This document shows, one piece after another, positions 48,028 through 49,209 of a stretch of DNA of 64,000 nucleotides. The position numbers and the translations under genes are program-made. The stretch is from Escherichia coli. GTDB taxonomy: Bacteria; Pseudomonadota; Gammaproteobacteria; Enterobacterales; Enterobacteriaceae. The stretch lies in NCBI RefSeq assembly GCF_024502345.1, contig NZ_JALDNN010000001.1; one strand, 5' to 3'. The notes beneath the pieces are model-generated. The model was given only the letters and a program-made list of their open reading frames with translations, ran no database searches and had not been told where the DNA came from. How positions within the stretch are numbered: the stretch's first letter is position 1; each line of letters begins with the position of its first letter.

Positions 48028-48225
48028 TTAGTGGTTATTCGCTGCCAGATCGGCTTCGCTTAGCTGGGTGGCCGCGAGCACCAGGTCACGATCAAAGCCC
48101 TGTTCCAGCATGCGCAAAGCAATTTTAATGGCTTGTTCATGCATGCCTTCCTGCAAACCTTCTAATTTACCTTCTTGCCAGCCAATTTGATGTCCTTCCT
48201 GCCGTAGCCGTTCAGCATTAGTCAT
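48028..48225 (-). CDS. ypaA: YpaA-like small ORF: duplicated C-terminal tail of the adjacent YfaD/RpnE gene
   Basis: 65 aa from the ATG ([65 protein letters not shown]). Its DNA is a diverged tandem copy of 48238-48490, the 3' end of the next gene. Whether it is expressed is unknown. Confidence 0.5.
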   Translation of the reverse strand: MTNAERLRQEGHQIGWQEGKLEGLQEGMHEQAIKIALRMLEQGFDRDLVLAATQLSEADLAANNH

Positions 48226-48237
48226 CAATCTCTCCTT

Positions 48238-49209
48238 TTAATGACAGTTCGGAATATCAGCATCAGTGAGTTGGGTTGCCGCCAGCACAATCTCACGTTC
48301 AAAGCCCTGCTCCAGCATGCGCAAGGCAATTTTAATGGCTTGCTCATGCATGCCTTCCTGCAAACCTTCTAATTTACCTTTCTGCAGACCCTCCAATTTA
48401 CCTTGCTGCAAACCTTCTAATTTACCTTCCTGCCAACCAATTTGATGTCCTTCCTGCCGTAGCCGTTCAGCAATAGTCATTAATCTCTCCTTTTGTAGTG
48501 GTGAACGTTCGGCAATCTCCTGAATAAAACGGGTGAAACGGGAGGTATCGCCGCATTGCAGCAGATAATTAAACAGTGTTTGTAGCTGGCTGTCATTAGT
48601 GAAGCCTCTAACCAAAAGCGTGGTGATCCTGTCGACCATACCGATTAAATCGCGGTCGCGAATATGCTTTTGAATCAGTTCCAGCAGAGCTATACGCCGA
48701 TGTTGCATGATCTCATCGTCAGGTACGATGGTGATATCCACCAACGGAAAAGCTTCGGTGTACAACTGCCGGGCAAGTTGCGGATCGTCAAACTCATCCA
48801 GCCAGTTGAGTGAGTACGGGTAGGGCGAGGTTTCGCCATGATAAAACAGCAACGGCACCACCAGCTGGACTCTGTCATAGCCTTTGTCCAGGTGACGCTG
48901 CATGGCGGCAGTGGCATAGCGCATTAGCCGAAAAGCCATATTCTTTTCTGCAGAGCTTTGATGTTCAATCACGCAGTAGATATAGCCGTCACCGTCGCTG
49001 GTTTCCACGGACCACAAAACATCCGAGTAGTAAGCGCGTAAACTTTTTTCAATAAAACTAGTGGGTTCCAGGCGTAAGGTTTGCAGGTTGCAAAGCTTGC
49101 GCAGTGGTTCTGGTAAATGTATTTCGAGAAAATCCCGTGCGGTTTCGGGTGTGAACATAAAGGTTTTAAACACCGCATCATGCGGGGAGGAGGTTGTTGA
49201 TTCGGTCAT
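48238..49209 (-). CDS. yfaD: Rpn-family recombination-promoting nuclease (YhgA-like, PD-(D/E)XK) YfaD/RpnE
   Basis: 323-aa [73 protein letters not shown]...; the C-terminal tail holds three GKLEGLQ repeats. Confidence 0.85.
48346..48441 (-). repeat. in-frame 24-bp tandem repeats (about 3.5 units) in the yfaD/rpnE tail-coding region
   Basis: Plus-strand units caaaccttctaatttacctttctg / cagaccctccaatttaccttgctg / caaaccttctaatttaccttcctg encode QxGKLEGL repeats. The ypaA copy at 48100-48170 has only one unit. Confidence 0.8.

Follow-up and report, generated by a model that had tools for sequence, protein, structure and literature searches.

The tail of rpnE (yfaD) in Escherichia coli is tandemly duplicated, and its second copy, ypaA, lies directly downstream as a small gene with a ribosome-binding site of its own. 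In this study, we analysed this locus in a window of 64,000 nucleotides of E. coli DNA (assembly GCF_024502345.1, contig NZ_JALDNN010000001.1) and in complete E. coli genomes. The locus very probably corresponds to the published rpnE / rpnE-S / ypaA (rpnE-Ss) module of E. coli. According to this explanation, rpnE would encode the PD-(D/E)XK nuclease RpnE-L, and an internal ribosome-binding site and ATG (48492-48478) would allow the last 80 codons to be translated on their own, giving RpnE-S. The ypaA gene would be a tandem duplicate of this small gene including its ribosome-binding site, located between the rpnE stop codon and a putative terminator common to yfaU. A run of 4-aa (12-bp) units is predicted to lie in helix 1 of the small protein encoded by either copy, and the array would grow and shrink, probably through slippage during replication or through unequal recombination of identical 12-mers.

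Small S proteins of RpnA, RpnB and RpnC bind and block the toxic long form and act as intragenic antitoxins; the crystal structure of RpnA-S (7TH0) was solved in the same work (Zhong et al. 2023, PMC10400941). Moreover, strain-to-strain variation of the 4-aa repeat was described, "including RpnSs proteins" (PMC10400941). An internal start was found in every rpn gene, and the internal product of rpnE was noted to resemble YpaA (Meydan et al. 2019, 10.1101/520783). The anatomy of the locus, its variation in the population, selection on ypaA, recent changes in repeat number and the collapse of two copies to one come from the present analysis; that the internal start and ypaA are translated and that S proteins act as antitoxins is taken from these papers.

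Results

Organization of the rpnE-ypaA locus

In the window, rpnE is located between glpC and yfaU, the same place as in K-12. The glpC gene ends near 49403 and is encoded on the minus strand, like rpnE and ypaA. The features of the locus are as follows.

48238..49209, minus strand: rpnE (yfaD), 323 aa in the ORF listing; full-length product RpnE-L, a candidate PD-(D/E)XK nuclease and toxin
48583..49188, minus strand: Transposase_31 / YhgA-like nuclease domain of RpnE, residues 8-209 (Pfam PF04754, E = 9.9e-87)
48487..48492, minus strand: internal Shine-Dalgarno AAGGAG of rpnE, 6 nt 5' of the internal ATG (48480-48478), read from the sequence
48238..48480, minus strand: rpnE-S, in-frame internal ORF of rpnE, 80 aa; putative intragenic antitoxin, as its counterparts RpnA-S, RpnB-S and RpnC-S are
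48352..48423, minus strand: rpnE repeat array, six 12-bp units between GWQEG and MHEQ
48238..48300, minus strand: "E-type" end, where the in-frame rpnE tail has diverged from ypaA at its 3' end (about 63% identity)
48232..48237, minus strand: Shine-Dalgarno AAGGAG of ypaA, adjoining the rpnE stop TAA (48238-48240) and 6 nt 5' of the ypaA ATG
48028..48225, minus strand: ypaA (published name rpnE-Ss), 65 aa, free-standing second copy of the RpnE-S gene
48145..48168, minus strand: ypaA repeat array, two 12-bp units encoding KLEG LQEG
48028..48093, minus strand: "Y-type" end, the ancestral-looking 3' end of ypaA (DRDLVLAATQLSEADLAANNH plus stop)
47994..48020, no strand assigned: GC-rich hairpin, 10-pair stem with 6 GC pairs, between the convergent ypaA (stop 48028) and yfaU/rhmA (stop 47987)

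If translation started at TTG 48228 instead of ATG, the ypaA ORF would comprise 66 codons. By its match to the consensus, the GC-rich hairpin is a likely terminator common to ypaA and yfaU. A sigma-70 consensus scan of 47900-49450, including the region upstream of the internal start, found no promoter to which the published internal transcription start could be assigned, and an Rfam scan of the whole window gave no match at the rpnE/ypaA locus. The PADLOC defence models, whose library is older than the work on Rpn proteins, returned only a spurious "putative invertase" match (E about 0.002).

RpnE belongs to the Rpn nuclease family

RpnE matches Pfam PF04754 over residues 8-209 (290.2 bits, cut-off 21), TIGR01784 (176.7 bits, cut-off 52.1) and the RpnE equivalog NCBIfam NF007418 over model positions 1-308 of 308 (717.7 bits, cut-off 583). 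The product of ypaA aligns with positions 244-308 of the latter model (121.5 bits). PF14261 (DUF4351), cited for free-standing RpnS in some species, had no match to RpnE or YpaA at E <= 1. PF27070 (HTH_Rpn_C) is a precomputed match in all 120 listed homologues and in the neighbouring rpnE/ypaA products; our local Pfam scan of the window's proteins returned no PF27070, possibly owing to absence of the model from that Pfam copy.

Residues D11, D63, E82 and Q84 are all kept in RpnE at the same positions as in RpnA, and R94 and D165 are conserved too. Mutation of the first four in RpnA abolished three in vivo phenotypes, and mutants of R94 and D165 had different effects (PMC5350276). K-12 RpnE was inactive upon overexpression in recombination, toxicity and SOS assays, unlike RpnA-D (Kingston et al., PMC5350276). 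RpnE is therefore treated here as a candidate toxin, even though all four residues that inactivate RpnA when mutated are conserved. By analogy with the tested paralogues, we infer that RpnE-L would be the toxin and that RpnE-S and YpaA would act on RpnE-L.

The duplicated unit is a small gene with its ribosome-binding site

The preliminary description had placed a tandem duplication of the rpnE tail at 48028-48490, and the open reading frames and the alignment bear this out on the minus strand: the last ~255 bp of rpnE recur directly downstream as ypaA. Similarity starts at AAAAGGAGAGATT(A/G)ATGACT, at ~48493 in rpnE and ~48238 in ypaA, and the duplicate runs from the internal Shine-Dalgarno/ATG through the stop codon. 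With similarity setting in at the internal Shine-Dalgarno and ATG, and the same AAGGAG before the ATG of ypaA, the duplicated unit is a complete small gene, RpnE-S with its ribosome-binding site, and not an arbitrary piece of the tail.

From the Shine-Dalgarno to codon 19, the two copies show 4 differences in 69 nt (about 94% identity), and the 51 nt 3' of the repeats show 3 differences (about 94% identity). For both stretches together, pS is 0.23 and pN is 0.01. Such likeness, ~94% over ~120 nt with matching ribosome-binding site and start codon, is far beyond chance. In the last 63-66 nt identity is ~63%, with one 3-nt indel. Over the last 16 codons pS rises to 0.55 and pN to 0.20, and the amino-acid changes in this diverged end are conservative (E/D, I/L, T/S). 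The earlier impression that identity is high over the helix and lower near the 3' end thus holds (~94% versus ~63%). A fall as sharp as this, from 94% to 63%, suggests that the 5' part has since undergone gene conversion or recombination. In total, ypaA is shorter than the rpnE tail by exactly 48 bp.

Internal start and predicted fold of RpnE-S

In K-12, use of the internal start of rpnE was demonstrated by retapamulin and Onc112 ribosome profiling and by SPA-tag blot (10.1101/520783; PMC10400941). AAGGAG is found at this start in every one of the E. coli loci read (L002-L019), in four of five Escherichia loci from a species-representative scan (L021-L025) and in E. marmotae rpnE; outside E. 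coli, most loci of other Escherichia species and of other genera have the internal motif as well. Shine-Dalgarno and start lie 80 codons before the rpnE stop, within the interval of about 50-90 codons that characterises RpnS proteins.

A PDB sequence search with RpnE-S gave a weak two-piece match to 7TH0 (RpnA-S; E = 0.19), split exactly around the repeat array. This weak match would locate the insertion point and is by itself no proof of homology. The AlphaFold2 model of RpnE-S, of moderate confidence (pLDDT 73), predicts a helix over residues 3-57, with the whole array inside that one helix; the repeats start at residue 20. Foldseek with this model returned 7TH0 as best match (target-normalised TM-score 0.71, E = 0.083). 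With moderate confidence, RpnE-S is thus predicted to have the RpnS hallmarks of an RpnA-S-like helical fold and repeats 8-20 residues after Met1 in helix 1.

The repeat unit is 12 bp and its number varies between strains

Tandem Repeats Finder reported 48353..48438 with period 24, 3.6 copies and 83% match. Comparison between strains reveals an elementary unit of 12 bp (4 aa) instead, because the length of the locus changes between strains in 12-bp steps. The preliminary description was right that the repeats are in frame and expand and contract; its unit of 24 bp, with three in rpnE and one in the copy, has to be replaced by a 12-bp unit, with six in rpnE and two in ypaA of the window. The 12-mers of units 1 and 5 in the rpnE array are the same (AAATTAGAAGGT), and removal of units 1-4 would yield exactly the ypaA array.

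When 741 bases around the rpnE/ypaA tail were compared by megablast with 5,426 complete E. coli genomes, 5,420 proved to have the locus, in each case on the chromosome. From these, an evenly spaced sample of 60 genomes was taken for the matched span, and one or more examples per length class were fetched and read. The spans were 813, 789, 765, 741, 729, 717, 705, 693 and 657 bp for two copies and 486, 462 and 423 bp for one copy. About 36 of the 60 sampled genomes carry two copies and about 23 (about 40%) one copy.

Repeat number is anything but invariant across strains: among the loci read, rpnE has 0-8 units and ypaA 0-6. The combinations (rpnE, ypaA) are (6,2) in the window, (0,1) in K-12, and (6,4), (5,2), (5,1), (8,4), (4,0), (5,0), (3,1), (8,6) and (1,4) in other E. 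coli loci. In a search of 5.8 billion proteins, free-standing YpaA homologues had 57, 61, 65, 69, 73, 77, 81 and 89 aa, lengths that again follow 4-aa steps. The changes in repeat number are recent, because the near-isogenic loci L008 and L013, with 2 nt differences in 1,800 nt of flanks, nevertheless differ by one 24-bp block in ypaA. The 741 bases used in this search match E. coli O125ac:H10 strain C 236-04A at 100% identity, and the window's RpnE is 100% identical to WP_060659425.1 from the same strain. The exact allele combination of the window is rare, with two of 5,420 genomes at >= 99% identity.

ypaA is maintained as a gene

The ypaA ORF is intact in 15 of 15 two-copy loci read, and all differences in its length are multiples of 12 bp. 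Its own ribosome-binding site, whose presence the preliminary description had left to be checked, is AAGGAG, 6 nt before the ATG, and is kept in the same 15 of 15 loci. Comparison of 12 distinct alleles gave a pN/pS of 0.12, and third codon positions account for 16 of the 26 segregating sites. Because of the intact ORF, the conserved AAGGAG and this low pN/pS, we regard ypaA as a working gene; judging from these sequences, the free-standing copy is under purifying selection and not an inert scar.

As a separate ORF with its own AAGGAG, directly 3' of an rpn gene and with 94% DNA identity to the 5' and middle part of rpnE-S, ypaA has the features of a free-standing RpnSs gene. Independent translation has been documented in K-12, where the start site of ypaA was seen by ribosome profiling (10.1101/520783) and tagged YpaA (rpnE-Ss) was detected on blots by SPA tag (Zhong et al. 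2023, PMC10400941).

Gain, collapse and recombination of the copies

Every single-copy allele read ends like ypaA (...DRDLVLAATQLSEADLAANNH) or in a closely similar version. Among Escherichia species with one copy, two further species have exactly the Y-type end in rpnE, E. albertii and E. whittamii have closely similar versions of it, and the Salmonella diarizonae homologue ends in AANNH, like the Y-type end. The full E-type C-terminal end was found in no single-copy Escherichia allele read. Since single-copy Escherichia rpnE and the Salmonella diarizonae homologue share the Y-type end, ypaA appears to keep the ancestral C-terminal end, and the in-frame end of rpnE would be derived.

Two copies are also seen in genomes labelled as E. 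fergusonii and E. marmotae, and the duplication is therefore old, or was moved by recombination. An old duplication, as proposed in the preliminary description, gains support from the same diverged 3' end of the two copies in these genomes. The one-copy locus L016 is identical to the two-copy locus L011 over 1,020 nt upstream, and its tail resembles the ypaA of L011; by its sequence L016 is a recent collapse of an L011-like two-copy allele. The tail of L025 is a hybrid, E-type-like in its first part and with a crossover inside the 3' segment, and is best described as an apparent secondary collapse. Loss of Ss genes by deletion or fusion has been reported (Zhong et al., PMC10400941).

Two other histories were considered. 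That single-copy alleles are simply ancestral is only partly right: E. albertii, E. whittamii and the two other Escherichia species are single-copy, but E. fergusonii and E. marmotae are two-copy and L016 is a recent collapse. An imported nuclease domain in two-copy alleles was rejected, since the distances mix one- and two-copy alleles (0-28 differences in 738 nt).

Alternative explanations

Public annotation favours two readings other than the published module. Of the 14 two-copy RefSeq loci that were fetched, 10 have ypaA annotated (PGAP) as a pseudogene and the other four as a CDS, and the RefSeq annotation in most genomes is "hypothetical protein; incomplete; missing N-terminus". Together with the absence of ypaA from roughly 23 of the 60 systematically sampled genomes, and with the E. 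marmotae copy, whose 3' end is frameshifted and whose ribosome-binding site is weakened to AAGAAG, this would fit an inert duplication scar or pseudogene fragment of rpnE. Such a scar is hard to reconcile with 15 of 15 intact ORFs, length changes in multiples of 12 bp, a preserved AAGGAG and a pN/pS of 0.12, and with the start site and tagged protein observed in K-12; we regard the scar reading as largely refuted and very improbable. The family name given to rpnE by RefSeq and NCBIfam, "ISNCY family transposase", would make rpnE an ISNCY-type transposase gene and the repeated tail part of the end of a mobile element. The fixed place glpC - rpnE - yfaU in 5,420 of 5,426 genomes, always chromosomal, argues against this, as do the published analysis, in which terminal inverted repeats and target-site duplications were absent (PMC10400941), and the assignment of the domain to the PD-(D/E)XK nucleases (PMC5350276). 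We give a transposase next to no credence.

A further reading accepts ypaA as a gene and questions its partner. The numbers of units in rpnE and ypaA are unequal in 14 of 14 two-copy E. coli loci read, in the window, and in 36 of 36 two-copy genomes of the systematic sample. For RpnC it was reported that S and L forms one repeat unit apart fail to neutralise and that only matched numbers do (PMC10400941). YpaA of the window has two units and RpnE-L six, and therefore no pairing would be expected under the RpnC rule. It is conceivable, though rather doubtful, that YpaA is systematically mismatched to the neighbouring RpnE and serves as a stored alternative tail or as a neutraliser of RpnE variants arriving by gene transfer. 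Somewhat less probable still is that ypaA is a non-cognate tail cassette which, by recombination, replaces the tail of the toxin together with its intragenic antitoxin at one stroke, or neutralises other RpnE variants, and is not a back-up antitoxin. The ypaA-type end of all single-copy alleles, the L011-ypaA-like tail of L016 and the crossover in the 3' segment of the hybrid L025 tail would agree with such replacement. From the marginal distributions, however, only 2.4 equal pairs are expected among 36; a sample with none has a probability of about 0.09, and the genomes do not count as independent observations. In E. marmotae, whose ypaA copy is in decay, the two numbers are equal (2,2). The rule that rpnE and ypaA never share a repeat number was dropped for these two reasons, as P of about 0.09 is not significant. 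Moreover, collapse is a one-way deletion and provides no reversible switch, and the functional role of YpaA in this reading is a proposal.

Discussion

The duplication described here is real, ordinary and already published, including the translation of ypaA and the repeat variation (Meydan 2019; Zhong 2023). K-12 has the same locus (glpC - rpnE - ypaA - yfaU), gene order, internal ribosome-binding site and start, the same free-standing duplicate and the same position of the 4-aa repeat, between GWQEG and MHEQ. The alleles differ in length: rpnE of K-12 has 0 units (299 aa) and its ypaA has 1 (61 aa), as compared to 6 (323 aa) and 2 (65 aa) in the window, and ypaA of the window differs from that of K-12 by an I3N change.

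RpnA, RpnB and RpnC pairs resemble RpnE in the Transposase_31 domain, the catalytic residues, the small C-terminal protein from an internal start and the repeats in helix 1. Toxicity, antitoxin action and repeat-number specificity have been shown for RpnA, RpnB and RpnC, and the role of RpnE is an analogy to these (PMC10400941). RpnA has no free-standing second copy, unlike RpnE. By published phylogeny, tandem duplication of only the small-protein part occurred independently in other rpn paralogues and genera (PMC10400941); in Rahnella, the repeat content of the free-standing copy is again unlike that of the in-frame tail (82 aa against 69 aa). A comparable case is the TAEL 4-aa repeat of EcoR124I and EcoR124II, likewise an in-frame 12-bp repeat in a helical spacer whose copy number changes specificity (cited in PMC10400941). 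It belongs to the unrelated type I restriction subunit HsdS, however, and sets the spacing of the DNA target, not protein-protein pairing.

To the published picture our analysis makes small additions: ypaA apparently keeps the ancestral end, repeat numbers are unequal in 36 of 36 two-copy genomes (not significant), and at least one collapse from two copies to one is recent. Moreover, there is concrete reason to correct the RefSeq labels "pseudogene" for ypaA and "transposase" for rpnE. The findings sharpen the questions of whether RpnE is an active toxin and what role a free-standing copy with a different repeat number plays. If the doubtful systematic mismatch were true, YpaA would not be a redundant antitoxin, and recombination with the in-frame tail would re-specify nuclease and intragenic antitoxin in one step. 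The interest of the locus lies in the nesting of one gene inside another, where the small product inhibits the large one in those paralogues that were tested, and in a hypervariable in-frame repeat which tunes the pairing partners, in a family that has been linked to phage defence.

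Annotation of the rpnE/ypaA locus

In RefSeq (PGAP), ypaA, the free-standing second copy of the rpnE tail, is in most genomes a pseudogene labelled 'hypothetical protein; incomplete; missing N-terminus' (window 48028-48240; fetched loci L001, L002 and L005-L013), and rpnE, which encodes an Rpn-family nuclease, bears the name 'ISNCY family transposase'. These two labels are at odds with published evidence as well as with the purifying selection measured on ypaA here. Across the whole 64-kb window, Rfam returned a single match (50.3 bits), which is unrelated to the rpnE/ypaA finding:

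9185-9227, + strand, nuoG RNA motif (RF01748)

Rearranged loci and related architectures

Several E. coli loci are rearranged. In strain CX04 (L020, 1-1500) the nuclease-coding part of rpnE is replaced by a Tn7-like element carrying genes for the TnsA endonuclease and a transposase, and all that remains of rpnE is a small tail-type ORF adjoining the neighbouring gene yfaU. The rhamnonate operon (yfaU-rhmD) is partly or wholly deleted beside the locus in strains 14EC033 (L015) and 2015C-3101 (L019); in the former, as a result of the deletion, the RpnE tail now ends in ...ADLAPLSLQ. The single-copy rpnE of E. coli SCPM-O-B-8794 (L025, tail at 3206) carries a hybrid tail (FELEIVLATTQLT followed by EADLAANNH), a composition that implies a crossover between the two tail copies, within their diverged 3' segment.

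A copy of ypaA is also present in E. marmotae (loci L103-L105):

L103:2501-2692, E. marmotae ypaA

Repeat number in this species is the same in ypaA and rpnE (2 and 2). Because its 3' end is frameshifted (...IDRDLAARSHPAKRSRSGSE), its ribosome-binding site is weakened to AAGAAG and it carries a T2A change, E. marmotae ypaA looks as if it were decaying.

Rahnella bruchi (L062, 3230 and 3652) offers an independent case of the architecture of E. coli rpnE/ypaA: behind an rpn gene whose internal tail is 69 aa long lies a free-standing tail copy of 82 aa, which contains more KLEG repeats than the internal tail.

Diversity of the tail core

The tail core has a synonymous diversity of ~0.11-0.13 among E. 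coli alleles; those compared were free-standing ypaA and the rpnE tails of L002-L019 and L101. This value probably exceeds the diversity typical of E. coli core genes. Possible explanations are that allele classes have persisted for a long time or that the rpnE/ypaA locus recombines often.
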